Sequence record: NC_052656.1
Origin: Escherichia phage anhysbys
DNA length: 64,000 nt
Strand: one strand, 5' to 3'
Each line of letters opens with the position of its first letter. Positions within the stretch are counted from its first letter, which is position 1. A program made the position numbers and the translations under genes. Shown piece by piece: positions 3,455 through 37,788 of the stretch. The notes under the pieces are model-generated. The model ran no database searches. It was not told where the DNA came from and was given only the letters and a program-made list of their open reading frames with translations.

Positions 3455-3514
3455 TATACTCGCTATCGCTCGACCCTTCGGGGTTAGGGTAGCATATTTT
3501 TTGAAAAAAGTCAA
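3455..3514. repeat. conserved ~60-bp intergenic element, copy 1
   Basis: TACTCGCTATCGCTCG-(hairpin)-TTAGGGTAGCATATTTTTTGAAAAAAGTCAA. Confidence 0.55.
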
Positions 3515-3517
3515 CAC

Positions 3518-3835
3518 TTATTTTTTGGTAAGTAGATAAATCAATTGTTCACCTGCTTCTGGTGCATATAGTGCTTTAGTATCGAAGTCAAAGAAGTGAG
3601 TGACTCCTGTTACTTTGGATGCATGAATAGATAATCGTGCAAGCTTAAGCAGATTATCCATTTCCGCAATCTTTGCACGAAATACTGCACGTGTAGCGTC
3701 AAAAGCTGCATGTGGCATGTATTTACGATTTAGACTACTACGCTTAAATTTACGATAATCTGCAATGATCCTGTTACGTTCTTTGTTCAAATGTTTTACC
3801 AGTGCAGTATATACATGTGGTTCTTTGTTAGCCAT
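3518..3835 (-). CDS. hypothetical basic protein
   Basis: ORF track frame; start refined to MANKEPHVY (AAGAGGAG RBS), overlapping stop of upstream gene. Confidence 0.55.
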   Translation of the reverse strand: MANKEPHVYTALVKHLNKERNRIIADYRKFKRSSLNRKYMPHAAFDATRAVFRAKIAEMDNLLKLARLSIHASKVTGVTHFFDFDTKALYAPEAGEQLIYLLTKK

Positions 3836-4040
3836 TGTTAATCTCCTCTTCATATGTTGGTAGTGCATGGTATGCGATCACAGGTGCCAAGTCAAAATAA
3901 AAATGACCATTGATAACAGCTATCGTGCCATTGCGTGTTTTGTTAACTTCACAGAATCCCTTCTTGCCGTTTGCCATGATTACAAGCCACTCTCCGATAG
4001 GAACATCCTCGGTACCAGATACTTTAATCCATCCACTCAC
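3828..4040 (-). CDS. hypothetical protein
   Basis: ORF track 70 aa. Confidence 0.5.
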   Translation of the reverse strand: MSGWIKVSGTEDVPIGEWLVIMANGKKGFCEVNKTRNGTIAVINGHFYFDLAPVIAYHALPTYEEEINNG

Positions 4041-4297
4041 TTTACTTCCCCTTTGTAATCGGACACTATACCAGGTCTTACTTTTGCCTTAAGATGTTTC
4101 AACTCTGCCATAGGAGTTGCCACTTGTATAAGGTTAATAATTTCAACCTCGTAGATAGTATACTCATAACCCGCATACTTCCCGATGGAATGTAGGTATT
4201 TGATAGCATGTTCAGGCGAATCTGCTTCAACATACCCCAAATCTTTTGTAGTGCGGCCTTCACAGTCGCCTTCTGTAGTTACGTGATAAAGTGTCAT
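4037..4297 (-). CDS. hypothetical protein
   Basis: ORF track 86 aa. Confidence 0.5.
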   Translation of the reverse strand: MTLYHVTTEGDCEGRTTKDLGYVEADSPEHAIKYLHSIGKYAGYEYTIYEVEIINLIQVATPMAELKHLKAKVRPGIVSDYKGEVK

Positions 4298-4443
4298 AAA
4301 ACCTCCTCATAGTAAGGTAAAGCCTTGATCAGTTGTTCTGAAGTGCCATTTTGCACCCACGTAACACCCTTGTCAAGAGAAACATACCCTTTCTTATTGA
4401 TAAATTTACGGAGACAACCAGTGAACTTGTTTTTGTAGATCAT
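4294..4443 (-). CDS. small hypothetical protein (~49 aa)
   Basis: Own translation MIYKNKFTGCLRKFINKKGYVSLDKG...; fills gap between co-oriented genes with start/stop overlaps. Confidence 0.35.
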   Translation of the reverse strand: MIYKNKFTGCLRKFINKKGYVSLDKGVTWVQNGTSEQLIKALPYYEEVL

Positions 4444-4883
4444 TTCTTCTTTCCTTTCTTTAATTTGTTGTGACCTTTACCCTTATAAAGCTTGTGATTA
4501 CGAGTAGACGGGTTATTTTGGTTCTCCAGTCGGCTAACAGGTGTATTCCAAAGGTTTCCTGCTACAAAAGATGCTGCCACAAGTTCTTCCAGGTATACAA
4601 AATCCAAAGCAGGTATCTTTGTTTCCCTCATCTCGCGTTCTACATTAGACAACACGCCTTCTTCCTTACTGTCTTCTTTTTCAATTACAGACCAACCCTC
4701 TTCCTGCCAAGCTTCCCCTCTGAACCAAGTTTCCATGTTATAACCTTGTTCGTCGAGAATAACACCATCTCGCATCTCAAACCATTCACCACCACAAAAA
4801 TGGTGGTGCTCAACACGTCTACCTTCCTTCATTGCTTCTTTAGCTTCGGGCCAAGTCAGTTTGATGTTTTGGATGTTTTGCAT
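4440..4883 (-). CDS. hypothetical protein
   Basis: ORF track 147 aa; first gene of minus block at divergent region. Confidence 0.55.
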   Translation of the reverse strand: MQNIQNIKLTWPEAKEAMKEGRRVEHHHFCGGEWFEMRDGVILDEQGYNMETWFRGEAWQEEGWSVIEKEDSKEEGVLSNVEREMRETKIPALDFVYLEELVAASFVAGNLWNTPVSRLENQNNPSTRNHKLYKGKGHNKLKKGKKK

Positions 4884-4997
4884 TTGTTTTCTCCTTTTGT
4901 TTGGTAGGAGTTGATCTTAACAAGATTAAAAAGTATGTCAATACTTGATCTGAAATTATTTTCAGGTATCATGTATGAACATTAACAAGAGAGGTAG

Positions 4998-5291
4998 ATG
5001 ATGAACATTACTTTAGCAACTAAGAATATTTCTGAAACAATTAACGGTTTTGGTGTGATTGTAGCCTTGCACGGTAACAATGAGAAATGGTTGGCTTCTT
5101 TTGAAGAGGATCGTCAACACAACATTATTTTAGATGCCCCTATAAAAGTTATGCATATCGTTGGTGAAAGCAAAGTGCTCACTTCCTCCCGTTCAAAAGA
5201 ACAAATTACAAATGAATTAGTAAAACTGCTTGACAATGTTCTTAACATGTTTGATAATGCACCCATCGATACAAAACGTGTCTTAATGTGA
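4998..5291 (+). CDS. hypothetical protein
   Basis: ORF track 97 aa; GAGAGG RBS. Confidence 0.55.
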   Translation: MMNITLATKNISETINGFGVIVALHGNNEKWLASFEEDRQHNIILDAPIKVMHIVGESKVLTSSRSKEQITNELVKLLDNVLNMFDNAPIDTKRVLM

Positions 5292-5303
5292 GAGGAGAAC
5301 AAA

Positions 5304-5591
5304 ATGTACTATTCACAAGACGAAGTAGCAAACATTAAACTGGCAGTGGGCGATCTTATTGTGTCACCTAACTACTATTGGGATAACACAGATTTGGTTG
5401 AAGTAGTAACCTATGTTGGAGTTGAAGGTATTGTGCTCTACACATTAGGTGGAGGTGTTGTTGGGGAAATGGAACGTTATACGACAACGAAGAAACTGGT
5501 AAGCTCTTATCACATGTTTTTACACCAAGGTTCGGAAGAGTATACAGCTTTCTTGTTGAAATTAGATGCAGATCGGGAGAAGGCACGATGA
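5304..5591 (+). CDS. hypothetical protein
   Basis: ORF track 95 aa. Confidence 0.55.
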   Translation: MYYSQDEVANIKLAVGDLIVSPNYYWDNTDLVEVVTYVGVEGIVLYTLGGGVVGEMERYTTTKKLVSSYHMFLHQGSEEYTAFLLKLDADREKAR

Positions 5592-11303: not shown

Positions 11304-11350
11304 TTACAAAAATGAAAGTACAAAAGCAAAATTTAAAGTTTACAAAAATT
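11304..11350 (+). repeat. AT-rich ~45-bp direct repeat, copy 2
   Basis: TTACAAAAATGAAAGTACAAAAGCAAAATTTAAAGTTTACAAAAATT. Confidence 0.6.
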
Positions 11351-11389
11351 TATGCAGATGGGGATGAGAAGAGTTCTCATGTGGAAATG

Positions 11390-11470
11390 CAAATGATAAT
11401 GATTCGCATTTAGGTTTATAAATGAGAATGATTCTTATTTAATAAAGTAAATGATAATCATTCTCATTTA
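11390..11470 (+). promoter_or_regulatory. three tandem Fur-box-like 21-bp palindromic sites
   Basis: AAATGATAATGATTCGCATTT / AAATGAGAATGATTCTTATTT / AAATGATAATCATTCTCATTT, about 30 bp apart. Confidence 0.5.
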
Positions 11471-11727
11471 GAGAATGACGCGCAGGGGCGGTGTTTGTCT
11501 CGCGCTCCCGTGTCCCCTCGCCATGTAATAAGAATAACAGATCCAACCAGGAAAGCAAGCGATTATTTTATCTTTACATTTCTTTACGAATATATAGCGC
11601 CCAGCCTACCGGCGATCAACCTTCCAACCAGTGCCCCTGGTATGTTAGCCCCGCCTTTACGCCGTGGGGTGGCGCTTCCTCTTCTGTATGTAAAACAGTA
11701 TAAGCCCTATCCCTGGGCTTGTCAAGA

Positions 11728-11994
11728 TTATTTTTTGTTTTCTTGCCAGGTCAGGACACCTAGCCAAAAATGAATATCACCTTTTCCCCAATGTGGTATA
11801 TTGCTTTCTTTCCCACCTTCACGCGCCCAGGTAAAACCGCCCGTGTAACTTTGTAATTGATAACTATCCTCGACCTTATAATCTGATAGGTTGAGAACGG
11901 TTTCAACCTTTAAGCCCGTTGCGCTTGCTACCTGGTGTACCGTGCCGCCTTGCCAGCCCAATGAGTGCATAAGGTGTAATGTAGTAGTTGTCAT
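11728..11994 (-). CDS. hypothetical protein in GC-rich island (doubtful)
   Basis: ORF track 88 aa; atypical GC-rich composition; isolated on minus strand. Confidence 0.25.
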   Translation of the reverse strand: MTTTTLHLMHSLGWQGGTVHQVASATGLKVETVLNLSDYKVEDSYQLQSYTGGFTWAREGGKESNIPHWGKGDIHFWLGVLTWQENKK

Positions 11995-12104
11995 GGTATC
12001 GCCCTTTCTTTGTTGTGCGCCCTGGTTGGCGCGGTAGAAAGATGATAGCCTTTTCCTTTATATATAGCAAGCAAAAAGAAAATAAAAAAGATTGAAAAAG
12101 TGGT

Positions 12105-12132
12105 TGACGTTCCTCACCTGGTAGCGTAGTAT
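12105..12132 (+). promoter_or_regulatory. candidate promoter for first gene of plus array
   Basis: TTGACG-16-TAGTAT; ~130 nt leader to ATG 12268. Confidence 0.4.
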
Positions 12133-12267
12133 TCATCTTGTCGAGGGGGGCGCGGCACAACGACAATAAACAACAGGAGGGCGCAATGTAGGACGGGCAA
12201 AGGTGAGGATCTCCATAATCCACCGTCAACCAACAAAAAACATCATTCATCACCTGGAGTTAAAATC

Positions 12268-12465
12268 ATGGCAACATTGCACATAGTAGCGAAAGCAGGA
12301 CAAATCAGCGTCGTGGTAAACGGTTTTACTGAGTTCAGTCATCCCCAGGATGATCATGAAACGGTTTTATCTTTCATTGATTCCCTGTTAGAAATGGGAG
12401 TCATTACAGAAGACCAGCACGCTACAAAGTGCAAGCGCGTTAATCAAATTGCAGGGATAGAATAA
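12268..12465 (+). CDS. hypothetical protein
   Basis: ORF track 65 aa; GGAG RBS; first gene of plus array. Confidence 0.5.
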   Translation: MATLHIVAKAGQISVVVNGFTEFSHPQDDHETVLSFIDSLLEMGVITEDQHATKCKRVNQIAGIE

Positions 12466-12471
12466 AAAGTA

Positions 12472-12530
12472 TTGACAACAAACAACAACCTGATAAGATG
12501 TATCACATAGGGCGGGAAGTGGTTTCCCGC
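12472..12530 (+). promoter_or_regulatory. promoter + 5' stem-loop cassette (PeSL-like)
   Basis: TTGACA, -10 TAAGAT, then GCGGGAA-GTGGT-TTCCCGC hairpin before gene 12556. Confidence 0.6.
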
Positions 12531-12555
12531 TCGTAACAGAAGAGAGATTATCATC

Positions 12556-12828
12556 ATGGCATCATATAGCGCAACAATGATCGTAGCTGGCACAACTGGT
12601 AAACCTATGAGCGGTGGCGGATCTTTCGCTAATATCAACATTGACGGGCGTTTATCCCTGGACGCAGCGATCACCGTGGCGCGGGAAACATTTAAGAAAG
12701 AATGTAAATTCAATAAACAAGATTATCTCGGTTTCGCTATTGAAAAAACCGCGCGTTTTGTTGATTATAAAAGCCCAAAAATGGTTGATACTACACTAAA
12801 AGCGCAAGATGTAGCGTTTTTGCTTTAA
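12556..12828 (+). CDS. hypothetical protein
   Basis: ORF track 90 aa; preceded by promoter/stem-loop cassette. Confidence 0.6.
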   Translation: MASYSATMIVAGTTGKPMSGGGSFANINIDGRLSLDAAITVARETFKKECKFNKQDYLGFAIEKTARFVDYKSPKMVDTTLKAQDVAFLL

Positions 12829-12831
12829 GGC

Positions 12832-12886
12832 TTGACATTAACGAATAATTTGTTAATATGTTACATAAAGCGGGAATAGTTCCCGC
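12832..12886 (+). promoter_or_regulatory. promoter + 5' stem-loop cassette
   Basis: TTGACA, TTAATAT, GCGGGAA-TAG-TTCCCGC. Confidence 0.6.
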
Positions 12887-12904
12887 TATTTGTAAGGTGG
12901 TAGA

Positions 12905-13162
12905 ATGTTTTACATCAAATTAAAAGGTCACGTGATCGCGTTCAAAGATAACGCTTTTTACAGATTAGCAAAATATGCGTTAATACATCCCCACTATGTT
13001 TATATAAGGGGGCGTGATGAAATAAATATCTTTGATCAAACAACATGCGAGAACATCGAGATCCGCAAGGTTGGCGTACGTGATTATCGTACATCTTTCT
13101 ACCCTTGCAAGGATTCAGCAAGTCTTTTTAAAGTATGCCAATTGTTGAAAAAAGGTGGTTAA
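12905..13162 (+). CDS. hypothetical protein
   Basis: ORF track 85 aa; cassette upstream. Confidence 0.55.
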   Translation: MFYIKLKGHVIAFKDNAFYRLAKYALIHPHYVYIRGRDEINIFDQTTCENIEIRKVGVRDYRTSFYPCKDSASLFKVCQLLKKGG

Positions 13163-13721
13163 TATGGGCCGCGAATATGTGATCCAGTCTTGGGTAAAAC
13201 ATGAAGCAGATGATCCGCGCATCGTTCCCGATCATCTTATCGATGAATCCACGGGATATAGCGGTGAGCAAATAGGTAACAGATTAGCACGTAGTAACGG
13301 CAACGTAAAAGCGCGTTATGTGCGCCCTGGTTGGCTGGCAAATGGTAACGCTGATTTATCCAGTGCGGAAGATGCGAGCGACGGCGCGAAAGATAATCCT
13401 TTGTACAAAATTGATCCGGCTTTTCGTGTCCTGGATGAATACCCCAGCAAGATAGCGGCGCTTGATGAAGCTCTGGAAAGTAAGCGCATCACCTGGACCG
13501 CTTACAACATGGCAAAAAACGTACTTGATGGTAAATTGATTCAAGCCGAAAGAAAATTAGCCAAAATTGCAGCCATAGCCCAGGAGGAAGACGAGGAGAC
13601 AACGGAAGAGGAAGAGTACGAAGAGATCCCGCCGTTGTTGTGTGTTGATGCTTTTCCTGATTATCAGCCGACAGAGGAAGAAAAAAGGATCGCACTAGAA
13701 AACTTTGAAAATAGTCTTTGA
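13155..13721 (+). CDS. hypothetical protein with acidic C-terminus
   Basis: ORF track 188 aa. Confidence 0.6.
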   Translation: MVNMGREYVIQSWVKHEADDPRIVPDHLIDESTGYSGEQIGNRLARSNGNVKARYVRPGWLANGNADLSSAEDASDGAKDNPLYKIDPAFRVLDEYPSKIAALDEALESKRITWTAYNMAKNVLDGKLIQAERKLAKIAAIAQEEDEETTEEEEYEEIPPLLCVDAFPDYQPTEEEKRIALENFENSL

Positions 13722-13775
13722 CATATCGCCGCCACTGGCATAATATTTACCACGTAGGGCGGCAATGGTGCCGCT
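13718..13775 (+). promoter_or_regulatory. promoter + 5' stem-loop cassette
   Basis: TTGACA, CATAAT, GGCGGCA-ATGG-TGCCGC. Confidence 0.6.
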
Positions 13776-13783
13776 CATAGTGA

Positions 13784-13879
13784 AATTATGCAAGAGGTTT
13801 ACAATGATTAATAAAGAAAATAGCTTGACGGTTGGAACGATTAACGCTATCATTTTCGCCGTTCCATTTTGGGTTGTAG
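13784..13879 (+). CDS. tiny hydrophobic protein (~31 aa)
   Basis: Own translation MINKENSLTVGTINAIIFAVPFWVVVAAIIF; sits between two cassettes. Confidence 0.4.
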
Positions 13880-13887
13880 TAGCGGCT

Positions 13888-13949
13888 ATTATTTTCTAAA
13901 AAATATTCTTGACAACGTTTTTTAATCTGATAAGATGTATCACATAGGG
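13888..13949 (+). promoter_or_regulatory. promoter + 5' stem-loop cassette
   Basis: TTGACA, TAAGAT, GGCGGCGGAA-TAC-TTCCCCGCC. Confidence 0.6.
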
Positions 13950-13989
13950 CGGCGGAATACTTCCCCGCCAAAACAAAAAGGGTAACACA

Positions 13990-14352
13990 ATGAGCAAGCA
14001 AATTAATACTATCATGTTTAATCTGGTATCTTTCCGCGACGATATGAAAAATTTACCACGTGAAACGGTTGATATTCATGTTTCAGCTTATCGCGCCCTT
14101 ATTGACATGTTACCGCTAAAACGTGATCAATATGCCGCTAACACGATGCTTAATGCTATGCTTAAAAAGATGATTCAAACGGATCTCACCCTAGCGTATG
14201 AGTATCAAGGGCGCTTATATGCAACTTATAACAAGGCGGTACCTGGTCTGGGAAGTACCGAAGAGTTGCACGGCTTAAACCTGGATCAAAACACTTGGGA
14301 TAGTATGCGCCGCGTTATGGTATGGGCCGAAAGCGGTAAAATTTACGAATAA
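13990..14352 (+). CDS. hypothetical protein
   Basis: ORF track 120 aa; cassette upstream. Confidence 0.6.
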   Translation: MSKQINTIMFNLVSFRDDMKNLPRETVDIHVSAYRALIDMLPLKRDQYAANTMLNAMLKKMIQTDLTLAYEYQGRLYATYNKAVPGLGSTEELHGLNLDQNTWDSMRRVMVWAESGKIYE

Positions 14353-14358
14353 AAACGG

Positions 14359-14417
14359 TTGACACTGTTTAAACTTCTGGTATAGTTTACCACATAGGGC
14401 GGGAAGTGGTTTCCCGC
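14359..14417 (+). promoter_or_regulatory. promoter + 5' stem-loop cassette
   Basis: TTGACA, TATAGT, GCGGGAA-GTGGT-TTCCCGC. Confidence 0.6.
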
Positions 14418-14440
14418 CAACAATGAAAAAGGTTATCATC

Positions 14441-14806
14441 ATGGCTATTAATATTAATGTTTCCGCTTATGCTACCCTGGCTGCCACGGCTAAAATTGAA
14501 TTGTCCAGCATTGAGGCGGTGCACATTAGCGCCCGTCGCTGGTTTCAACAGTCTTACGGTAACACATATTTTTCTTTAATGGTTGACGTTGAGATCGGCG
14601 GTAAACTGATCGAGGTGGTTAACGTTCCGTTTCAATATGGCTATGGTGATCATTTTGATACCGTCGCCCTGGAAGAATTTAGCAAGGTTATTAATATGGA
14701 AGGTAAAGAGTTTTCACGCGGCGCGTATCTTTCCCGTTTTTGCCGTGACAATGGGATCACTGTATACAGTCATGCGAGCGATGTTAAACGTAAAAAAGAT
14801 TTATAA
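14441..14806 (+). CDS. hypothetical protein
   Basis: Track frame 14423-14806; start refined to MAININ (pattern ..ATCATCATGGC shared with other array genes). Confidence 0.6.
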   Translation: MAININVSAYATLAATAKIELSSIEAVHISARRWFQQSYGNTYFSLMVDVEIGGKLIEVVNVPFQYGYGDHFDTVALEEFSKVINMEGKEFSRGAYLSRFCRDNGITVYSHASDVKRKKDL

Positions 14807-14813
14807 AAAGCAT

Positions 14814-14872
14814 TGACAGCACGAATAAAAAGAGTAAACTGTATTACATAGAGAGCGGGAACACTTCCCGCC
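14814..14872 (+). promoter_or_regulatory. promoter + 5' stem-loop cassette
   Basis: TTGACA, TAAACT, GCGGGAA-CAC-TTCCCGC. Confidence 0.6.
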
Positions 14873-14895
14873 TCACTGAAAAAGAGAGAAAAATC

Positions 14896-15135
14896 ATGGC
14901 TAAATCTAAAATGTACAACGGTCACAAAAACAAAACTCATTGGAATGTAAACCTTTGGATTAATAACGATGAATCGTTATACCGGTTGGCCCAAGATTTT
15001 ATTAACGCTAATGCTAATCGTAATGATGCGGCGCGGGATATGATGCTTTTTCTGGAACAAACTGGACAAGATAAAACGCCAGACGGTTTCAAATATAGCA
15101 CTACTGCGATCCGTGCCGCGATGGTTGGAATGTAA
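14896..15135 (+). CDS. hypothetical protein
   Basis: ORF track 79 aa; cassette upstream. Confidence 0.6.
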   Translation: MAKSKMYNGHKNKTHWNVNLWINNDESLYRLAQDFINANANRNDAARDMMLFLEQTGQDKTPDGFKYSTTAIRAAMVGM

Positions 15136-15144
15136 TAAAAACAG

Positions 15145-15203
15145 TTGACAACGTTTAAAATTAGTGTAAGATGTATCACATAGGGCGGGAAGTGGTTTCC
15201 CGC
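15145..15203 (+). promoter_or_regulatory. promoter + 5' stem-loop cassette
   Basis: TTGACA, TAAGAT, GCGGGAA-GTGGT-TTCCCGC (same as 12472 copy). Confidence 0.6.
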
Positions 15204-15225
15204 CAAAACAGAGAGATTAAAGATT

Positions 15226-15453
15226 ATGGCTATCAATATTGTTCGCGTATCTGGCACCGTTGGCACTTCCCAGGTCATTGCCGTTGTAACAAACAAAAAG
15301 ATTAATGATGTATGTGAGATCTTGAATAAGTGGGCTGTTGCTAATTTTGGGGAATATGCAAGCGTTGAGTACATCGAATCCTACCAGGTGCCAACCATCA
15401 GCCTAACCGATCTCAACGTTGATCGCCTGTTATGCCTGGACGAATTAATCTGA
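15226..15453 (+). CDS. hypothetical protein
   Basis: ORF track 75 aa; cassette upstream. Confidence 0.6.
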   Translation: MAINIVRVSGTVGTSQVIAVVTNKKINDVCEILNKWAVANFGEYASVEYIESYQVPTISLTDLNVDRLLCLDELI

Positions 15454-15462
15454 AAAAGATTG

Positions 15463-15519
15463 TTGACACCGGAAAGAAAAAGAGTAAACTGTATTACGTA
15501 GGGCGGCAATGGTGCCGCT
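15463..15519 (+). promoter_or_regulatory. promoter + 5' stem-loop cassette
   Basis: TTGACA, TAAACT, GGCGGCA-ATGG-TGCCGC. Confidence 0.6.
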
Positions 15520-15543
15520 CACAACAGAAGAGAGATTATTACG

Positions 15544-15759
15544 ATGGCCAATATCCGCACACTGTTAAAAAATGCAAGTCAAGTTTTATTTTCAGATGAC
15601 GAGTATTTCAATAAAGACATTACAGGCGTAAAAAATCTTAAAGATGTAAAGGATGTGATAGGTATTCGCGGATCTTTACGTAAAGGTGACTACTACGGCA
15701 ATAAAGTACAATATAAATTAAATCAGTCTTATGATTTTACTTTGACAATTATTTCATAA
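15544..15759 (+). CDS. hypothetical protein
   Basis: ORF track 71 aa; cassette upstream. Confidence 0.55.
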   Translation: MANIRTLLKNASQVLFSDDEYFNKDITGVKNLKDVKDVIGIRGSLRKGDYYGNKVQYKLNQSYDFTLTIIS

Positions 15760-15764
15760 AACCG

Positions 15765-15827
15765 CTTGCAATCTTAATAAAATAAAGTAAACTGTATTAC
15801 ATCAAGGCGGCGGAATGGTCCACCGCC
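15765..15827 (+). promoter_or_regulatory. promoter + 5' stem-loop cassette
   Basis: CTTGCA, TAAACT, GGCGGCGGA-ATGG-TCCACCGCC. Confidence 0.55.
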
Positions 15828-15851
15828 TAACAAAGAGAAGAGGAAAACACC

Positions 15852-16019
15852 ATGATCACTTTCGCTACCCGTGAAGCCGCTCGCAACGTTGCCCGTAAAG
15901 TTAACGCCGCCAACCTGGGCGCTACGTTTAAAGCACCTGTAAAAGATGAATCAGGAAAATGGATCTTCCCTGGTCTGCGTCACGCTGATAAGCTAGGCAC
16001 TTTAAGCCTTAAAAAATAA
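15852..16019 (+). CDS. small hypothetical protein (~55 aa)
   Basis: Own translation MITFATREAARNVARKVNAANLG...; cassette upstream; shares 5' leader and first codons with 16094 gene. Confidence 0.45.
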   Translation: MITFATREAARNVARKVNAANLGATFKAPVKDESGKWIFPGLRHADKLGTLSLKK

Positions 16020-16022
16020 TCG

Positions 16023-16059
16023 TTGACTTTTCGTTATAGCGCCTTATAATGGGCGCTAT
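16023..16059 (+). promoter_or_regulatory. near-consensus sigma70 promoter with -10 inside a palindrome
   Basis: TTGACT-16-TATAAT; inverted repeat ATAGCGCC-TTATAATG-GGCGCTAT encloses -10. Confidence 0.6.
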
Positions 16060-16093
16060 AGAGAAGAGAAACCACTACTGACAAGGAAACACC

Positions 16094-16315
16094 ATGATCA
16101 CTTTCGCTATTGTCGCCGTTGTTGCTGGTCAAGTTTACGTAAACGATACATTCACCACAGAAGACAAGGCCGCAGGAGATATAACCGCCGTTTACAACGA
16201 GTGCAAGGCAGTAGAAAGGATGTTAGCGCCTTGTATGTTAATGAGTGAACGCCAGGACGGGATAACAGTGTTTACTAACATTGAGACAGGGTACCAAATG
16301 GTAGTAACAAAATAA
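16094..16315 (+). CDS. hypothetical protein
   Basis: ORF track 73 aa; TTGACT-16-TATAAT promoter upstream. Confidence 0.55.
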   Translation: MITFAIVAVVAGQVYVNDTFTTEDKAAGDITAVYNECKAVERMLAPCMLMSERQDGITVFTNIETGYQMVVTK

Positions 16316-16318
16316 AGC

Positions 16319-16375
16319 TTGACACGGATTTAATTTTCAGTAAACTGTTACACGTAGGGCGGGAATAGTTCCCGC
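16319..16375 (+). promoter_or_regulatory. promoter + 5' stem-loop cassette
   Basis: TTGACA, TAAACT, GCGGGAA-TAG-TTCCCGC. Confidence 0.6.
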
Positions 16376-16393
16376 TAAAAAGAGAGAAAAACC

Positions 16394-16747
16394 ATGAAAG
16401 CACAAAATGCAATTAAAGAGTACATCCTTGCCGCTATCGATTTTAATGATTACGGTATTACAACCGAAAAAGAGAAGATCGCGGAATTGATGCGCCGTTT
16501 TAATTCCGAGTACTGGTACCCTGATAACCAATCACGTTTTAATTATAGTATTGTTAAAGCACTTGCATCATGGTTACAAGGTTTGCCATCAGATATTAAT
16601 ATCGCTTTCGAATATTGGGAAATTGATCGCTTGTTAACATCCTGGGGATACATTAAAGAGAATAGCAGCGATGATAAAATCCAACGAGAAAGGGAAAATT
16701 ATTGGCTTTATATTGCAGGCGTGATCCTTGCTTGCTCTTATGAATGA
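16394..16747 (+). CDS. hypothetical protein
   Basis: ORF track 117 aa; cassette upstream. Confidence 0.6.
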   Translation: MKAQNAIKEYILAAIDFNDYGITTEKEKIAELMRRFNSEYWYPDNQSRFNYSIVKALASWLQGLPSDINIAFEYWEIDRLLTSWGYIKENSSDDKIQRERENYWLYIAGVILACSYE

Positions 16748-16753
16748 TAAACC

Positions 16754-16807
16754 TTGACAATTTTACAAAACAGTTTAAATTAATAATATAGCGGCAATGG
16801 TGCCGCT
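16754..16807 (+). promoter_or_regulatory. promoter + 5' stem-loop cassette
   Basis: TTGACA, TAATAA/AATATA, GCGGCA-ATGG-TGCCGC. Confidence 0.55.
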
Positions 16808-16826
16808 CATATAAAGAGGAAACAAA

Positions 16827-16973
16827 ATGAATACATCTAATCGCGCAGAAAAAATCCAATCTTCCAAGATCCGCAAGGCCTGGAACGAGGAAGTGATCCG
16901 CAAAGGCGACAAGCGCAATAAAACAAAGCGCGGGAAGAGTGACAAATATAATTGGATGGATTTAGAGGATTAA
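16827..16973 (+). CDS. small basic protein (~48 aa)
   Basis: Own translation MNTSNRAEKIQSSKIRKAWNEEVIRKGDKRNKTKRGK...; cassette upstream, terminator downstream. Confidence 0.45.
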   Translation: MNTSNRAEKIQSSKIRKAWNEEVIRKGDKRNKTKRGKSDKYNWMDLED

Positions 16974-16979
16974 CATAAC

Positions 16980-17007
16980 AAGGGCGCACCAAGCGCCCTT
17001 TCTTTTT
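16980..17007 (+). terminator. rho-independent terminator
   Basis: AAGGGCGC-ACCA-AGCGCCCTT + TCTTTTT. Confidence 0.7.
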
Positions 17008-17028
17008 ACATGTAGAGGATAAACAAAG

Positions 17029-17214
17029 ATGACTTTAAGCGAGCTTAAAACAGCCTACAACGCAACGTTAAAAATAGCCGTGCGTTACCGTGATGCGTAC
17101 GGTTTTATCGCGCAGGGCGTGATCCTGGGCTTTTCTGACGATGGTTTGATCTATGTTGATGCACATTATAACAAGGTAAAACCTGAAAACGTCATTAGCA
17201 TAAAATATCTTTAA
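17029..17214 (+). CDS. hypothetical protein
   Basis: ORF track 61 aa. Confidence 0.5.
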   Translation: MTLSELKTAYNATLKIAVRYRDAYGFIAQGVILGFSDDGLIYVDAHYNKVKPENVISIKYL

Positions 17215-17220
17215 AAGTGG

Positions 17221-17280
17221 TTGACACCATAACCGGACCTGTTAAACTGTATTACATCAGGCGGGGAATAGTTCCCCACC
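17221..17280 (+). promoter_or_regulatory. promoter + 5' stem-loop cassette
   Basis: TTGACA, TAAACT, GCGGGGAA-TAG-TTCCCCAC. Confidence 0.6.
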
Positions 17281-17299
17281 ATACAAAAAGGTAAATATT

Positions 17300-17506
17300 A
17301 TGATCACCGCAAAACAAGAGAAAATCATTATCGACGTTGCAGCCGTTGCCGCTATTGCTATTATTGGATCTTATTATGATACCCGTTTCCCGTCGGCTAT
17401 GCATGAGATCGCCGCCGTTGCATCAGTTGGCGTACTGTTTTACGTTGGTAAACGCTATTTATCACCAATGATTAACAAGCTGACACCGTGGAAAAATAAA
17501 GGTTGA
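17300..17506 (+). CDS. small membrane protein
   Basis: ORF track 68 aa; hydrophobic IIIDVAAVAAIAIIGSYY / AAVASVGVLFYVG. Confidence 0.55.
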   Translation: MITAKQEKIIIDVAAVAAIAIIGSYYDTRFPSAMHEIAAVASVGVLFYVGKRYLSPMINKLTPWKNKG

Positions 17507-17557
17507 TCCTGTTTTATATTGTGTTATAGTTATCGTGTAGGGCGGCAATGGTGCCGC
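17503..17557 (+). promoter_or_regulatory. promoter + 5' stem-loop cassette
   Basis: TTGATC, TATAGT, GGCGGCA-ATGG-TGCCGC. Confidence 0.55.
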
Positions 17558-17577
17558 GCCCCTTTGAGGATGCAATC

Positions 17578-17862
17578 ATGAGTAAAGCTAACACCGTGCT
17601 AATGTTTTCCCTGATTAATGATCCCGCTTACTTGTCCAACATGACGCAGGAGGGTAACACATTAACGGCAACATTCACCAATAAGCTTGACCGGGTGATC
17701 ATCATCTCACTGAAAACAGTTAGTAAAGGCTTTTACTCGTTAGCTTATCATTGGATCACCGATACCGATGAGACAAGCCAGGACTATAGCGCCCCTTTCC
17801 CTGAATCAATGGCACGGGAGATCATCGCCGCCGTTGTAAATGATGGTTTGTTTACTGCATAA
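17578..17862 (+). CDS. hypothetical protein
   Basis: Track frame; start refined to MSKANTVLMF downstream of cassette. Confidence 0.6.
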   Translation: MSKANTVLMFSLINDPAYLSNMTQEGNTLTATFTNKLDRVIIISLKTVSKGFYSLAYHWITDTDETSQDYSAPFPESMAREIIAAVVNDGLFTA

Positions 17863-17880
17863 AATAATTTAGAAAAAGGC

Positions 17881-17937
17881 TTGCAATCATTTTGAGATAG
17901 TGTATATTTAATTCATAGGGCGGCGGGAATAGTTCCC
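17881..17937 (+). promoter_or_regulatory. promoter + 5' stem-loop cassette
   Basis: TTGCAA, TATATT, GGGAA-TAG-TTCCC. Confidence 0.55.
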
Positions 17938-17960
17938 AAAGCAAACGAGAGGATTACACG

Positions 17961-18080
17961 ATGAGCAAGTACACAGTAGAATACACGGTAGAAAATCCGG
18001 CAGTATCCGAAGGTAAAAAGATGACATTTGCCATCAGTATAATCGCTTTCGTTGTCACTATCTTATCAATCATCTTATAA
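17961..18080 (+). CDS. tiny membrane protein (~39 aa)
   Basis: Own translation MSKYTVEYTVENPAVSEGKKMTFAISIIAFVVTILSIIL; cassette upstream. Confidence 0.4.
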   Translation: MSKYTVEYTVENPAVSEGKKMTFAISIIAFVVTILSIIL

Positions 18081-18090
18081 GGTGCACACC

Positions 18091-18252
18091 ATGAAAACAA
18101 CAGATATTATCAAAGAGATCGCCCATGCCGCTGGCGTTGAGATCGAGGAAGTGATCGCGCTCAATCTTACAGAAAACGATCTGCGCAACTATGAAGCGGA
18201 AAGCGTGAAAGCAAGCGGCGCGGTCCTGGTATATGATCCGGCTAACAAGTAA
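18091..18252 (+). CDS. hypothetical protein
   Basis: Track frame 18052-18252; start refined to MKTTDIIKE after AAGGTG. Confidence 0.5.
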   Translation: MKTTDIIKEIAHAAGVEIEEVIALNLTENDLRNYEAESVKASGAVLVYDPANK

Positions 18253-18261
18253 GGGGATAAC

Positions 18262-18372
18262 ATGAATCCGAAAGATATGCAAGCATGGAAAGGGTACGAC
18301 GATCTAAGCGCCTTGCGCAATAAGTCAAGCCGTAACCTTAGACGGTTGGAAGCAAAGAAAAAGAAAAAATAG
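18262..18372 (+). CDS. tiny basic protein (~36 aa)
   Basis: Own translation MNPKDMQAWKGYDDLSALRNKSSRNLRRLEAKKKKK; AAGGGGA RBS. Confidence 0.35.
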   Translation: MNPKDMQAWKGYDDLSALRNKSSRNLRRLEAKKKKK

Positions 18373-18373
18373 T

Positions 18374-18430
18374 TTGACAAGTCCGCCTAGTCTGATAATA
18401 TGTATCTTGTAGGGCGGCAATGGTGCCGCT
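18374..18430 (+). promoter_or_regulatory. promoter + 5' stem-loop cassette
   Basis: TTGACA, TAATAT, GGCGGCA-ATGG-TGCCGC. Confidence 0.6.
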
Positions 18431-18450
18431 CACAAGAAGAGAGAAAAATC

Positions 18451-18735
18451 ATGAAAATCACAAAAAGCCTAACTAATTATGCAGCACGTCGCGGATTATG
18501 TTTAACCGTTGAAAACTTAGGGAAAGAAGACTTTTTGTGTTTTTGGGAGCTTGAAAATGATTGCGAGTGGATGTTTTCTTATTCTATCTGCGAAGATCAA
18601 AACGGTTGTTTGTTAACCTGGCGCGGTAATATCTATTTACCGGAAGAAATTAAAGAAGAGTTACCAGGTACGATCATGACAGAGAGACAGCTTAAGGAAA
18701 TGATTAATTTTGTAGGGCAAAACATTAAAAAATAA
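18451..18735 (+). CDS. hypothetical protein
   Basis: Track frame; start refined to MKITKSL downstream of cassette. Confidence 0.6.
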   Translation: MKITKSLTNYAARRGLCLTVENLGKEDFLCFWELENDCEWMFSYSICEDQNGCLLTWRGNIYLPEEIKEELPGTIMTERQLKEMINFVGQNIKK

Positions 18736-18736
18736 T

Positions 18737-18797
18737 TTGACAGCACGCAAACAACGTAGTAAAGTTTACCACATAGGGCGGCGGAATGGTCCACCGC
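18737..18797 (+). promoter_or_regulatory. promoter + 5' stem-loop cassette
   Basis: TTGACA, TAAAGT, GGCGGCGGA-ATGG-TCCACCGC. Confidence 0.55.
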
Positions 18798-18820
18798 TCA
18801 CAACAGAAGAGAAACAAATC

Positions 18821-18991: not shown

Positions 18992-19038
18992 TTAATGAGG
19001 CGGGGGAGTATTCCCCGCCGTCAATAAAGAGGTAAATC

Positions 19039-19308: not shown

Positions 19309-19309
19309 T

Positions 19310-19370: not shown

Positions 19371-19389
19371 CATTAATGAGGGTAGAATC

Positions 19390-19494: not shown

Positions 19495-19504
19495 GGTGAA
19501 ACAA

Positions 19505-20103: not shown

Positions 20104-20109
20104 AAAGTA

Positions 20110-36282: not shown

Positions 36283-36287
36283 CAGTT

Positions 36288-36312
36288 GCACCCCGTTCTT
36301 CGGGGTGTTATT
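36288..36312 (+). terminator. terminator-like hairpin
   Basis: CACCCCG-TTCTT-CGGGGTG + TTATTGTAT. Confidence 0.45.
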
Positions 36313-36333
36313 GTATACGTAAAGGAGGAGATA

Positions 36334-36672
36334 ATGTATTACACTGAAGACTACATACTGTATAACTTTTTTAAAGGCTGGTTGGAATGGGCGGAAAAAG
36401 CTCCTGTTGGAGATTGTGTTTTTCCTTGGGACTCTCGTCAAGGTTTGTGTCGTTGTTTGGAAGACTGGCTTATAACCACAAGCTACAACTCAGAAACTAA
36501 GAAATCTACATCACAAAGGTTAAAAATTTTATTTGAAGAAGATGGTTTAGATCCAATTTATCCTTTCGGTGAGGAAAGTTTCCACAATGGTCTTTTCCTT
36601 GGCACTCAACATTATGATAAAGATCGTGTAGATTGGGTAAAAGAAAAGGTAGCACAGTATGAATGGGGTTAA
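36334..36672 (+). CDS. FY-WL/GLC/WVKDR family protein, paralog 7
   Basis: Track frame; start refined after AAAGGAGGAG; FFKGWLEWAEKAP, QGLCRCL, RVDWVKEKV. Confidence 0.6.
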   Translation: MYYTEDYILYNFFKGWLEWAEKAPVGDCVFPWDSRQGLCRCLEDWLITTSYNSETKKSTSQRLKILFEEDGLDPIYPFGEESFHNGLFLGTQHYDKDRVDWVKEKVAQYEWG

Positions 36673-36862
36673 GAATTATCACCGCTGGTTACAAAGCTAT
36701 CTTAAGAAATGTGAACTTGGTGTTCCAGGTTATACTTACGACACAGACGAGATCCTTGATGAAATGGAAGTTTGGTTTAAAGAACCTCGTGAGCTATTGG
36801 CAAATATTCTAATGGCTTGGGATGGTACGGCACAAAGCATCGAAGGGGGTAGAAATGAGTAA
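36659..36862 (+). CDS. hypothetical protein
   Basis: ORF track 67 aa. Confidence 0.45.
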   Translation: MNGVKNYHRWLQSYLKKCELGVPGYTYDTDEILDEMEVWFKEPRELLANILMAWDGTAQSIEGGRNE

Positions 36863-36989
36863 GAAATTGTTTAATATTCGTGAGAATCGTGATGGATCGT
36901 TCTCTGTAGTCAATGAATTTAACGTTTCGGTTGGGACTTTTATTACTAAACGTCAAGCAGAACAAGTAAGAGATACTTTAAACAAGTAA
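36855..36989 (+). CDS. small hypothetical protein (~44 aa)
   Basis: Own translation MSKKLFNIRENRDGSFSVVNEFNVSVGTFITKRQAEQVRDTLNK. Confidence 0.35.
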   Translation: MSKKLFNIRENRDGSFSVVNEFNVSVGTFITKRQAEQVRDTLNK

Positions 36990-37006
36990 ATTTTTAAGGG
37001 GGACTT

Positions 37007-37426
37007 ATGTTAGGTAAGATCAAAGCTTTTTTCAAACGTATTGTTGAAGGAAGTCCAACAGAAGGTGCATTAGGAAGATCTCTAACAGGAGAACCACTTG
37101 CCATAATTTCTATCAGTCGGCATGGCGGATATTCCATTCGACAAACACCTTTAGGTATAAAAGGTAGTATGCTTTCTTGGACAATATCTCAAGTTGGTGA
37201 TAACAGACTTGCAGCTATAGCATTGCTTCGTGGGGAGTATGACTATTGTTTATCAGCATCTTGTAAAAAGCACCTCATAGAGCACATTAGAGACAGAGTA
37301 GAAAGAGAAGGCGGATACTTCTTCGAAACTAAGAGAAACGAACAAGGAACTCTTGACTTCACTAAGGTTTACTGGGACAATCATACTCGTCAAACTGTTG
37401 AACAACTTCTGGAGGAAAGATGTTAA
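37007..37426 (+). CDS. hypothetical protein
   Basis: ORF track 139 aa; AAGGGGGA RBS. Confidence 0.55.
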   Translation: MLGKIKAFFKRIVEGSPTEGALGRSLTGEPLAIISISRHGGYSIRQTPLGIKGSMLSWTISQVGDNRLAAIALLRGEYDYCLSASCKKHLIEHIRDRVEREGGYFFETKRNEQGTLDFTKVYWDNHTRQTVEQLLEERC

Positions 37427-37629
37427 AAGCTTTTGCTGTATACTCTACTGTAGGATTCTTTTATTGGATTATAGTTATTGTCGGATGTTGGTTAGGTTCT
37501 TGTGTTGTGATGGGAGAATGGTTAACATACAACGTATTTGAATGGGATGTAGTTTGTAGATCATTACTTGTTATATGGACTGCTATTGTTTGTTGGACAA
37601 CTGTTAGTCTAACATTGGATCTATACTGA
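37420..37629 (+). CDS. small membrane protein
   Basis: ORF track 69 aa; hydrophobic, Trp/Cys-rich. Confidence 0.5.
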   Translation: MLKAFAVYSTVGFFYWIIVIVGCWLGSCVVMGEWLTYNVFEWDVVCRSLLVIWTAIVCWTTVSLTLDLY

Positions 37630-37730
37630 TTAATAGATGGTAGATAGATGATCATAGTTTATCTACCTTCACTTACGTTTCATACCTCACTATCGTGAGT
37701 AACATGAAACATTATTATATAGAAATCTAC

Positions 37731-37788
37731 TACTCGCTATCGCTCGTAAACATATGTTTAGGGTACCATATTTTTTTGAAAAAGTCAA
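37731..37788. repeat. conserved ~60-bp intergenic element, copy 2
   Basis: TACTCGCTATCGCTCG-(AAACATATGTTT palindrome)-TTAGGGTACCATATTTTTTTGAAAAAGTCAA. Confidence 0.55.

Follow-up and report, generated by a model that had tools for sequence, protein, structure and literature searches.

Copies of the cassette and their gene context

The window, that is the whole stretch of 64,000 nucleotides from Escherichia phage anhysbys (NC_052656.1) that was analysed, comes from a Phapecoctavirus (phAPEC8-like) and contains two copies of a predicted promoter and leader-box cassette, which lie in direct orientation, were located on the plus strand and are read on the minus strand (copies A and B, Table 1). 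By the gene annotations of close relatives, both are intergenic. Copy A runs in the same direction as the minus-strand helicase, Nrd, primase and DNA polymerase I block and heads this leftward replication-gene block of 33 kb, in keeping with an earlier proposal that it lies upstream of a minus-strand gene. The second copy had been described as having no obvious minus-strand target, and no conserved minus-strand ORF is indeed present at copy B. Complete genomes carry exactly three copies each, separated from other matches by a clean score gap, and two of these fall in the window. The third (copy C) is on the opposite strand, ~38.6 kb past copy B and outside the window, within a 470-bp divergent gap upstream of gp005, tRNAs and terminase, where it heads the tRNA, lysis and terminase block. 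The small genes adjoining copies A and C matched no Pfam family and no candidate factor emerged from them. An annotation of the cassette was absent from every record inspected.

A sequence-only reading of the window had described an element of ~60 bp that occurs twice in intergenic regions, and both copies are verified by exact, mismatch and profile searches. Its end for the first copy (3514) stands, the start at 3455 was 2 nt early (3457), and its count of two holds for the window, the number per complete genome being three. Allowing up to 3 mismatches, the window has exactly two occurrences each of the 16-mer TACTCGCTATCGCTCG and the 19-mer TTAGGGTASCATATTTTTT, against chance expectations of 0.17 and 0.04, respectively. 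A search of the whole window for further degenerate copies, by 3-mismatch matching and by a profile HMM with 50 family members as input, recovered copies A and B alone, and the next-best profile match has E > 0.25.

Table 1. Positions of the cassettes and of associated features in the window
Feature	Position	Strand	Remark
Copy A, whole cassette (promoter and leader box)	3457..3514	-	profile E = 1e-15
-35 hexamer TTGACT, copy A	3509..3514	-	TTGAC(T/A) conserved in 50-member family
Extended -10 TGC TACCCT, copy A	3486..3494	-	17-nt spacer to -35
Local palindrome ACCC-TTCG-GGGT, copy A	3473..3484		covers predicted start ~3479
Leader box CGAGC-GAUA-GCGAG, copy A	3459..3472	-	mini-hairpin with tandem G.A
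Predicted 5' leader, copy A	3342..3479	-	138 nt, z = -1.9; predicted start site
65-aa gene after copy A leader (phAPEC8 gp030)	3341..3144	-	
Copy B, whole cassette	37731..37788	-	profile E = 3.5e-13
-35 hexamer TTGACT, copy B	37783..37788	-	
Extended -10 TGG TACCCT, copy B	37760..37768	-	17-nt spacer
Palindrome TAAACATATGTTTA, copy B	37747..37760		overlaps predicted start ~37753
Leader box CGAGC-GAUA-GCGAG, copy B	37733..37746	-	lengthened by flanking pairs UUA/UAG
Conserved non-coding block around copy B	37639..37845	-	207 nt, 83% nucleotide identity to other-genus phage
Hairpin 2, putative copy B RNA	37677..37710	-	tip CUCAC-GAUA-GUGAG
Hairpin 3	37639..37667		possible end of copy B RNA and/or terminator of + strand gene 37420..37629
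Two ACCTATCAAT repeats (ATTGATAGG on minus strand)	37798..37838		31 bp apart, upstream of copy B promoter

Anatomy of the predicted promoter

On the minus strand the cassette has the layout TTGACT-N17/18-TGnTACCCTA-(11-17 nt)-CGAGC-G(N)nA-GCGAG, and this geometry is kept in 50 distinct sequences, across several Stephanstirmvirinae genera, despite diverged spacer sequence. In both window copies the -35 agrees with TTGACA at 5/6 positions; most of the 50 members have TTGAC(T/A), and copy B of some genera has TTTACT or TTGATT. The spacer measures 17 nt in copies A and B and stays at 17-18 nt across 50/50 sequences, as in sigma-70 promoters (17 +/- 1 nt), while TGC/TGG TACCCT has the form TAnnnT with TG one base upstream and agrees with TATAAT at 3/6 positions. 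In these predicted elements the cassette fits a sigma-70 extended -10 promoter; it was not listed by a generic promoter scan of the window, for which the threshold was 9/12 positions. TGnTACCCTA is invariant in all copies retrieved without forcing that sequence, which are ~15 copies found by blastn; the independent evidence for the invariance of both TACCCTA and the box comes from these, most members having come from patterns that force the two blocks.

The CCC within the -10 is strictly invariant, beyond what sigma-70 recognition accounts for.

Previously the element had been suggested to be a minus-strand promoter/operator with a short hairpin. The promoter part is supported by the geometry in the 50 sequences. 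The hairpin is present in both window copies (the palindromes in Table 1) and folds in only ~10/30 family variants; it is therefore not a general feature of the family and is unlikely to be an operator. An intrinsic terminator at the same place, for which a G+C-rich stem-loop with a U-run right after it would be needed, was also rejected, since there is a weak plus-strand call at copy A only and none at copy B, and the stem is not conserved.

The window also has an abundant early promoter class, TTGACA-N16-TAAGAT/TAAACT with a TAGGGCGG...CCGCC hairpin after it, of which at least 15 copies lie between 12.4 and 21.4 kb. Its -10 and its hairpin are different, and the view that the element forms a class separate from PeSL-type promoters is thereby upheld. 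Membership in the PeSL/early class was rejected, as TACCCT with the box is seen in 2 window copies only and the early class has the TAGGGCGG hairpin. No transcriptome paper for Stephanstirmvirinae was found in the literature.

The leader box

The TACTCGCTATCGCTCG block, earlier taken as linear sequence, is better read as a mini-hairpin on the sense strand with covarying flanking pairs. The box pairs as C-G, G.A, A.G, G-C and C-G around a GNA/GNRA-type loop, is extended by up to three covarying flanking pairs, and owing to its U.G wobbles and tandem G.A can fold on the promoter-sense strand only. Six of the seven loop types start with G and end with A (GAA, GCA, GAUA, GAAA, GUAA and GGGA), the exception being GAAU. 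The pair adjoining the box is C-G in 17/34, A-U in 12/34, G-U in 1/34 and other in 4/34; the covariation score is 0.346 against a shuffled mean of 0.157, a value reached in 0/500 shuffles, and slid controls gave at most 0.125. Alone, the box hairpin is thermodynamically weak (-2 to -5 kcal/mol, z from +0.3 to -1.2). In copy A, T faces T at the first flanking position, and the minimum-energy prediction does not favour the hairpin alone; in copy B the hairpin appears in the minimum-energy and centroid folds. Rfam gave zero matches in the window at gathering thresholds, and at E < 5 it gave noise only, around both copies and in the island leader described below.

The non-coding locus at copy B

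Copy B lies in a conserved non-coding block shared with a phage of another genus whose proteins are ~56% identical. The predicted copy B RNA of 124 nt has z = -2.67. It includes hairpin 2, whose tip is a Watson-Crick version of the leader box and which shows a compensatory change in another genus (TTTC/GAAA to TTGC/GCAA). Hairpin 3 may be the end of the copy B RNA and/or the terminator of the plus-strand gene next to it; a U-run at this hairpin is found on neither strand. Additionally, both ACCTATCAAT repeats are invariant between genera, and we consider the ACCTATCAAT/ATTGATAGG repeats a candidate regulator-binding site. Since there is no conserved minus-strand ORF, copy B is most naturally taken to give rise to a non-coding or antisense transcript, and because the ~200-nt non-coding block is conserved and holds two further hairpins, copy B is probably a small or antisense RNA gene.

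Distribution in phages and chromosomal islands

Among the matches listed by blastn, the cassette occurs at two places per Phapecoctavirus record, and the matches in isolated phages are Stephanstirmvirinae records where taxonomy was retrieved. The A/B arrangement is retained in FKP3 and Tr1 despite different flanking genes. The same -35/TGCTACCCTA/box cassette, of ~58 nt, is also found behind the integrase of islands in the chromosomes of Citrobacter (OP27), Buttiauxella and Scandinavium, which by tblastx are unrelated to the phages. One island matches a phage contig without a difference over a 38-nt core, and in the most diverged island lineage (proteins 33-57% identical) the sharing at the nucleotide level is confined to the 58-nt cassette. 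Island genes include integrase, EndoVII, a DUF5906 primase-like NTPase, an HTH repressor, a resolvase and restriction-modification cargo; no structural genes were found within the 8-15 kb read, and no capsid-redirecting genes in the island stretches read. The presence of the cassette in chromosomal islands hints at a trans-acting factor, and its occurrence in such unrelated elements suggests cross-talk of the phages with resident mobile elements.

Proposed mechanism and alternative explanations

We propose that host RNA polymerase with sigma-70 would bind TTGACT, the 17-18 nt A/T-rich spacer and TGnTACCCT on the minus strand, and from this layout we infer transcription that would start ~7 nt past the -10, at about 3479 and 37753. 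With such starts, the invariant box would lie in the first 25-30 nt of the transcript and fold on the sense strand only. Copy A would drive the leftward genes for replication and nucleotide metabolism, copy C the block of tRNA, lysis, terminase and structural genes, and copy B a structured non-coding RNA of ~115 nt or longer, antisense into the early-gene block. On the nascent transcript, the leader hairpin would serve as a signal specific to this class, most likely one recognised by a trans-acting factor that sets timing or processivity in the manner of nut, put or ops signals, and would also cap the 5' end. For this promoter-leader explanation as a whole, including the factor, we consider the chances to be even. 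Because so special and strongly conserved an element also occurs in integrase-bearing enterobacterial islands, the transcripts that it would head probably form a small set under regulation of their own.

A more specific version can be put forward only as a speculation that is unlikely to hold in all its parts: the box would be the cis-signal of a dedicated Stephanstirmvirinae factor acting on the nascent RNA or the non-template strand and switching on the replication and late blocks, copy B would provide antisense early shut-off, and a family of enterobacterial integrative islands would have copied the 58-nt signal so as to express its operon solely upon infection by such a phage, which would amount to helper sensing by promoter mimicry. 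The sharing with islands would make this helper-sensing hypothesis directly testable. As regards the factor, the annotations examined showed neither a phage sigma factor nor a late activator, genes like N, Q or NusG were likewise not identified, and the genome paper on rV5 reported no homologues of T4 late-transcription proteins.

The same promoter might instead carry a leader hairpin that merely protects transcripts from 5'-end-dependent decay, without a specific factor. In E. coli, 5' stem-loops of the ompA type stabilise mRNAs; in every member the predicted 5' end would lie 2-8 nt from the start of the hairpin and its flanks, and the early promoter class of the window likewise has a hairpin right after the promoter. 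Any stable stem should serve this role, yet the non-Watson-Crick CGAGC...GCGAG does not vary between genera or in unrelated islands, and the box is predicted to be of low stability, so that we regard protection alone as unlikely. Should the cassette amount to no more than a promoter plus a stabilising 5' hairpin, its value for annotation would remain.

Alternatively, GCTACCCTAA and the box (direct repeats AGCGA-N-AGCGA) could be operator or activator sites in duplex DNA for a phage regulator switching three promoters. Such sites would suit the invariance of the -10 CCC and the box beyond sigma-70 needs, sharing with islands suits any trans-acting regulator, and the conserved ATTGATAGG repeats beside copy B count as putative protein sites in the region. 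Duplex-DNA sites do not, however, account for the variable distances between the box halves (loops of 3-4 nt) and from the -10 to the box (11-17 nt), nor for flanks that covary as base pairs or a fold that is strand-specific. Counting these against it, we consider this explanation improbable and would place the action of the box at the RNA rather than the DNA level.

Transcription-primed replication origins are known from T4 oriF/oriG and ColE1, and by analogy the cassettes could be transcription-activated origins at which a purine-rich leader RNA hybrid primes DNA synthesis. This would explain a promoter lacking a gene at copy B, where no ORF is present. After copy C comes an extremely A/T-rich palindromic tract with GTAC-rich inverted repeats on either side, several other-genus copies are followed by TTAATTAA-rich tracts, and in the islands a non-coding stretch of 0.7-1.1 kb lies between the cassette and the primase-like gene after it. 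Copy A, however, enters its gene directly after the 138-nt leader, no iterons were found in the island region, and cumulative GC skew merely tracks gene direction, nothing linking the sites to replication; an origin thus appears quite improbable.

Action on the plus strand, as a terminator or as a nut-like site with CGCTCG as boxA and then a hairpin, is very improbable. A scan flags 3473-3490 (+) as terminator-like and CGCTCG resembles lambda boxA CGCUCUUA, but the terminator-like call is made at copy A alone and the short hairpin is not conserved, the box would hold U.C/C.U mismatches, the plus strand is antisense at copy A, and the -35/-10 geometry would be left unexplained. It is scarcely credible that the element is a functionless recombination scar or mobile-cassette end whose direct repeats bracket a variable early region by chance: copies A and B do bracket ~34 kb of small early ORFs in direct orientation, and PeSL cassettes are reported to mediate shuffling in T4-type phages, but the conservation extends to each block, both between genera at ~50% protein identity and in islands otherwise sharing nothing, and the third copy has the opposite orientation and lies in a divergent promoter region.

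With the promoter-leader explanation preferred, the cassette offers a tangible way into the temporal programme of rV5/phi92/phAPEC8-like phages, which are widely used in therapy collections, and provides three sites to map, mutate and use as bait, namely the replication head, the tRNA/late head and the putative antisense non-coding locus.

Comparison with known systems

The cassette is similar to sigma-70 extended -10 promoters of E. coli and lytic phages in its TTGACT, 17-18 nt spacer and TG at -15/-14, and it keeps T-12, A-11 and T-7 of the -10. Unlike them, it has an invariant G+C-rich TACCCT and an invariant box that would be transcribed, and it occurs only three times per 150-kb genome. 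PeSL cassettes of T4-type phages (PMC2839356, PMC4122927) and the early class of the window are likewise promoter-plus-stem-loop units, repeated and apparently portable, whereas our cassette has another consensus, another hairpin and a low copy number and, unlike PeSL, is not associated with gene shuffling junctions. A bacterial repeat hairpin abundant in soil and Chloroflexota contigs, GTCAT(T/C)CCGAGCG(NN)GCGAGG(A/G)AT, has a core identical to the box (Watson-Crick stem, CGAGC, GNA loop, GCGAG), but lacks an upstream sigma-70 promoter and belongs to different hosts; GCTACCCTA upstream of these repeats was forced by the search pattern and may be chance.

Lambda nut, HK022 put and RfaH ops also are short conserved hairpins just past the promoter heading very long operons, with few copies per genome and a GNRA-like loop, the analogy being functional only. 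A lambda-type nut site was rejected: such a site would carry, on the transcribed strand, a CGCUCUUA-like boxA and then a boxB hairpin whose 5-nt loop is GNRA-like, whereas here the sense strand has no boxA, the loops are 3-4 nt and CGCTCG is antisense only. The Phapecoctavirus box GCGATAGCGAG matches the ops sequence GCGGTAGCGTG at 9/11 positions. The ops element forms a small C:G-closed hairpin, and G5A in it abolishes RfaH recruitment (PMC5995543). With ops defined as GGCGGTAGnnTG, having G5 and T6 as loop bases and pausing at the TG of positions 11-12, identity with RfaH ops was rejected, as the box has A at G5 or a 3-nt loop, ends in GAG and is without the TG pause dinucleotide.

Helper phage P2 and satellite P4 share late promoters. 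In our case too, an unrelated integrative element bears the special promoter type of lytic phages of the same host family; a helper-satellite relation would be hypothetical here, and the islands have no capsid-redirecting genes in the stretches read and carry restriction-modification cargo.

A conserved cassette in the window

The window was assigned by megablast to the genus Phapecoctavirus (phAPEC8-like myoviruses, Stephanstirmvirinae), with ~98.5% identity to many isolates, and by gene orientation it falls into three blocks, leftward at 1-4883, rightward at 4998-41064 (~100 small ORFs) and leftward again from 41134. A sequence-only reading had reported an element, here called the cassette, present twice in this stretch, and this holds, both copies (A and B, see table) being intergenic in close relatives. 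According to the annotation of such relatives, copy A is located between two minus-strand genes (phAPEC8 gp029 and gp030) and copy B in a 360-bp gap with the plus-strand genes ESCO13 gp044 and gp045 on either side. With up to three mismatches allowed, each conserved half of the cassette has exactly two sites in the window, for chance expectations of 0.17 and 0.04. The same reading had suggested a search of the whole window for further degenerate copies, and none beyond the two was obtained with a loose regular expression or a profile HMM. The cassette is real and conserved, and it is probably functional.

Coordinates of cassette copies and of features at the copy B locus
Feature	Record	Position	Remarks
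Copy A (copy 1)	window	3457-3514	direct orientation with copy B; sequence match
Copy B (copy 2)	window	37731-37788	direct orientation with copy A; sequence match
Three copies	Phapecoctavirus 536P1	74792(-), 107344(-), 145970(+)	complete genome read
Three copies	Justusliebigvirus VEcB	73640(-), 100518(-), 140098(+)	complete genome read
Two ATTGATAGG repeats	window		upstream of copy B -35; within conserved block 37639-37845
Promoter and box of copy B	window		part of conserved block 37639-37845
Second hairpin	window	37677-37710	tip CUCAC-GAUA-GUGAG, a Watson-Crick version of the box
Third hairpin	window	37639-37667	in conserved block

Predicted promoter: anatomy and class

Read on the minus strand, each copy has TTGACT, then an A/T-rich spacer of 17 nt, TG(C/G)TACCCTAA, a copy-specific short palindrome and finally CGAGCGATAGCGAG. 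This is the layout of a sigma-70 promoter of the extended -10 type, with which the promoter part of the cassette agrees on sequence criteria: the -35 matches the consensus at 5/6 positions, the spacing is optimal, TG is found at -15/-14 in both copies, and T-12, A-11 and T-7 are retained in the -10 hexamer. Because TACCCT agrees with TATAAT at 3/6 positions only, a generic promoter scan missed the cassette. 'Host dependent promoters' (MEME-derived) are annotated elsewhere in the phAPEC8 record, with none at the cassette sites.

TACCCT is found in just these two among the 41 TTGAC[AT]-N16-18-TAnnnT sites of the window, and the abundant early promoter class at 12.4-21.4 kb differs in its -10 and has a leader hairpin particular to it (TAGGGCGG...CCGCC); the earlier proposal of a second promoter class therefore stands, and the cassette falls outside the PeSL-like early class of the window. 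On the plus strand at 12470-21450, at least 15 promoters of the early type were observed (TTGACA-N16/17-TAAGAT/TAAACT/TAATAT; for example at 12472, 13909, 15145, 18374 and 20110), each followed within ~10 nt by a G+C-rich conserved hairpin, (A/G)TAGGGCGG-N-CCGCC, and the abundant class thus also carries a class-specific leader hairpin.

Distribution and gene context

Searches by blastn with either copy detected two places per Phapecoctavirus record, among the records listed, and weaker matches in Justusliebigvirus, FKP3-type Klebsiella phages, the phiWec179 group and Citrobacter phage Tr1, which are Stephanstirmvirinae where taxonomy was retrieved. A third copy (copy C), missed by blastn, was found on reading complete genomes and lies outside the window, ~38.6 kb to the right of copy B. 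A profile HMM built from 50 members had exactly three matches per complete genome and exactly two in the window at E-values of 1e-16 to 1e-11, none of the next matches being better than E = 0.25.

Copy A is placed 1.5 kb into the head of a 33-kb leftward block coding for DNA helicase, ribonucleotide reductases, primase/helicase, DNA polymerase I, methylase, glycosyltransferases and endolysin. Copy C occurs in a 470-bp divergent intergenic region and is directed into gp005, gp267, gp124, a tRNA cluster, spanin and terminase (late block), and copy B sits within the rightward early block, opposed to its direction. FKP3 and Tr1 are organised alike, one of their copies running in the direction of minus-strand genes and another lying amid plus-strand genes, and the genes flanking these copies show no homology to those flanking the copies in the window. 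No Pfam families were found for the candidate regulator genes adjoining the copies.

The leader of copy A (3342-3456, minus strand) comprises two similar units, ATCG(T/G)TAGATG(T/A)TCG(A/T)AGA...GAACA, and the orthologous copy of another genus has a strongly similar leader (L011), which suggests a functional structured UTR. Downstream of copy C, an extremely A/T-rich palindromic tract (TAATAATTATTAAATATTAATAAATAATTATTA; 2440-2650 of L047, equivalent to phAPEC8 57939-58149, outside the window) is flanked in the divergent region by GTAC-rich inverted repeats (GTACTAAAGCACTGTAC / GTACAGTGTATCAGAAC), a layout that looks origin-like or operator-like.

Some records are of interest for odd host names (MG065650.1, OP562383.1 and OR584014.1). 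Copy A is identical to that of the window (100% over the 91-nt query) in records under the names Campylobacter phage B15 and Acinetobacter phage ABPW7, and copy B is matched at ~87% by one under the name Pseudomonas phage PsgM04F. Contigs assigned to a Proteobacteria MAG and to a Lysobacteraceae genome (L201, L208) carry a copy A segment, identical to the window over the ~90 nt shown. Wrongly assigned hosts, or phage contigs that ended up in genome bins, would seem to explain these cases.

Family alignment

The family of 50 distinct sequences was drawn from viral, metagenomic and genomic collections by pattern scans, of which only matches with the full architecture were retained. The patterns specified 17-21 bases with variable gaps, for which tens to ~100 chance matches are expected; only matches which also had a -35 at the right distance were accepted as family, and all others were treated as unproven. 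TACCCTA and the box, a mini-hairpin motif in the predicted leader, were forced by the scans, and their invariance is independent only for the ~15 copies obtained from blastn or genome reading, in which they are likewise invariant, the exception being TGG or TGA for TGC before TACCCT (n = 2). Family members keep the -35, a spacing of 17-18 nt and TGn and differ in the sequence of the spacer, which is a promoter signature.

Pattern matches included tRNA 3' ends (...TAGGGTACCA) resembling copy B. This tRNA likeness was judged to be chance, since ~100 such matches are expected for 17 specified bases with a variable gap and the resemblance does not extend; ARAGORN detected no tRNA in the window. 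Marine viral contigs with a divergent pair, TATACCCTATCCCCCCCAACGAGCGAAGCGAG, and other single matches are within chance expectation and were left out of the family. In ~30 small IMG/VR contigs (L048-L089), a back-to-back inverted pair, ...CTATTAGAATGAATCTATACCCTATCCCCCCC(A/T)ACGAGCG(A/G)AGCGAG, ~70 bp apart, was observed with the box again flanked by pairing bases (CCCA/TGGG); a chance match to the pattern, passed down in a single virus family, may account for it.

The box in the predicted leader

The box is a mirror repeat, CGAGC-loop-GCGAG, with possible sense-strand pairs C-G, tandem G.A/A.G, G-C and C-G, and its loops in the family are GAA, GCA, GAUA, GAAA, GUAA, GGGA and GAAU. Among 34 distinct sequences, the pair nearest the box is C-G (17), A-U (12) or G-U (1) and is unpaired in four, and the third flanking pair is U-G, U-A, C-G, A-U or G-U in 32. 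The flanks covary as base pairs, with a score of 0.346; shuffling gave a mean of 0.157, none of 500 shuffles scoring as high, and slid controls stayed at or below 0.125. Switches between C-G and A-U are found inside each orthologous copy type and are therefore repeated events. Owing to the G.A and U.G pairs, the box folds only on the promoter-sense strand, which argues for action in the transcript or non-template strand rather than as a duplex site or cruciform. By itself the hairpin is thermodynamically marginal, and copy A of the window has T.T as its first flanking pair and a predicted minimum-energy fold that lacks the box.

The hairpin, with its tandem G.A pairs, is unusual. Hammerhead, K-turn and SRP-like readings of these pairs were rejected on inspection, as the box lacks the core nucleotides conserved in such motifs. 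The hairpin core of the phage box (stem, tandem G.A, GNA loop) also occurs in a widespread bacterial repeat, GTCAT(T/C)CCGAGCG(AA/CA/TA)GCGAGG(A/G)AT, in contigs from soil and Chloroflexota (L094, L098, L099, L156, L188, L190, L207 and L212).

The sequence-only reading had suggested a possible promoter/operator with a hairpin, the hairpin being the short palindrome between the -10 and the box. The promoter largely survives and the role of the hairpin does not, for the palindrome folds in only ~10 of 30 distinct variants and is not a family feature. It would straddle the predicted start site, and an operator function for it is unlikely.

Copy B, a candidate locus for a non-coding RNA

Copy B had been described as having no obvious minus-strand target, rightly so, as the 64-aa minus-strand ORF after it (37461..37655) is not conserved; of the frames downstream, that of the plus-strand gene alone is conserved in a phage from another genus. 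The 207 nt around copy B show 83% nucleotide identity to this phage, whose proteins are ~56% identical. A compensatory change is present in the outer stem of the second hairpin, and folding of a 124-nt RNA from the predicted start gave z = -2.67. No U-run terminator was found after the copy B hairpins, so the RNA may run on antisense into the early block.

Two exact ACCTATCAAT repeats (37798-37807 and 37829-37838, 31 bp apart) sit between the divergent copy B promoter and a plus-strand promoter at 37923. Both are invariant in the other-genus phage, variants (TTGATAGC/G) occur in VEcB, FKP3 and Tr1, and the repeats are a candidate regulator-binding site.

Chromosomal islands

Chromosomal islands are an unexpected second home of the cassette. 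Five full-cassette loci without tblastx similarity to the phages are integrative elements, in which a tyrosine integrase is followed by the cassette ~30 nt past its stop codon and by 0.7-1.1 kb without conserved frames; the remainder consists of four ORFs, including EndoVII-like and DUF5906 primase-like ones, an HTH repressor, a resolvase and restriction-modification cargo. Genome scans located it in Citrobacter sp. OP27 (complete chromosome) and in assemblies named, by record titles, Buttiauxella and Scandinavium; a search of 5,426 complete E. coli genomes gave no copy of the cassette or of the island leader. The island leader contains no convincing iterons and has no relevant Rfam match.

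Islands and phages resemble one another over ~40 nt only, running from the -10 to the end of the box. One island has a 38-nt core identical to that of a phage contig, and in the island lineage that has diverged most (proteins 33-57% identical) nucleotide similarity is confined to the 58-nt cassette. An unrelated island would be expected to retain the cassette selectively in this way if it responds to a factor or signal provided in trans, as we infer it may.

On one cassette-bearing island (L067), an Eco29kI-type restriction enzyme and a C5 methylase are encoded at 11310-13165 and a further N6/N4 methylase upstream at 1006-1683, adjoining a second integrase; this island therefore doubles as a defence island.

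Proposed role and comparison with known systems

The element is read here as a promoter-leader cassette, its transcription and start site being predicted from sequence. We lean towards a box that would act at the RNA level; a dedicated trans-acting factor for it is doubtful, and control of read-through or processivity is less probable still, the whole basis of that idea being that copies A and C head 33- and ~43-kb blocks, together with an analogy to nut, put and ops. The biology would be only moderately surprising unless a helper-sensing or antisense shut-off reading were true.

Rfam returned nothing relevant, either for the whole window at gathering thresholds or for both loci at E < 5, and the literature searched held no description of the motif and no transcriptome of the subfamily. 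The Phapecoctavirus box is like the RfaH ops element at 9/11 positions, and ops likewise forms a small C:G-closed hairpin, but the cassette is not such a site, as it lacks the TG pause and has not retained the loop bases essential for RfaH (PMC5995543). Nor is the cassette an intrinsic terminator. By the criteria for lambda nut sites, it is not one of these. As a class-specific promoter-leader cassette, it stands out for its tandem-G.A hairpin and its home in chromosomal islands.
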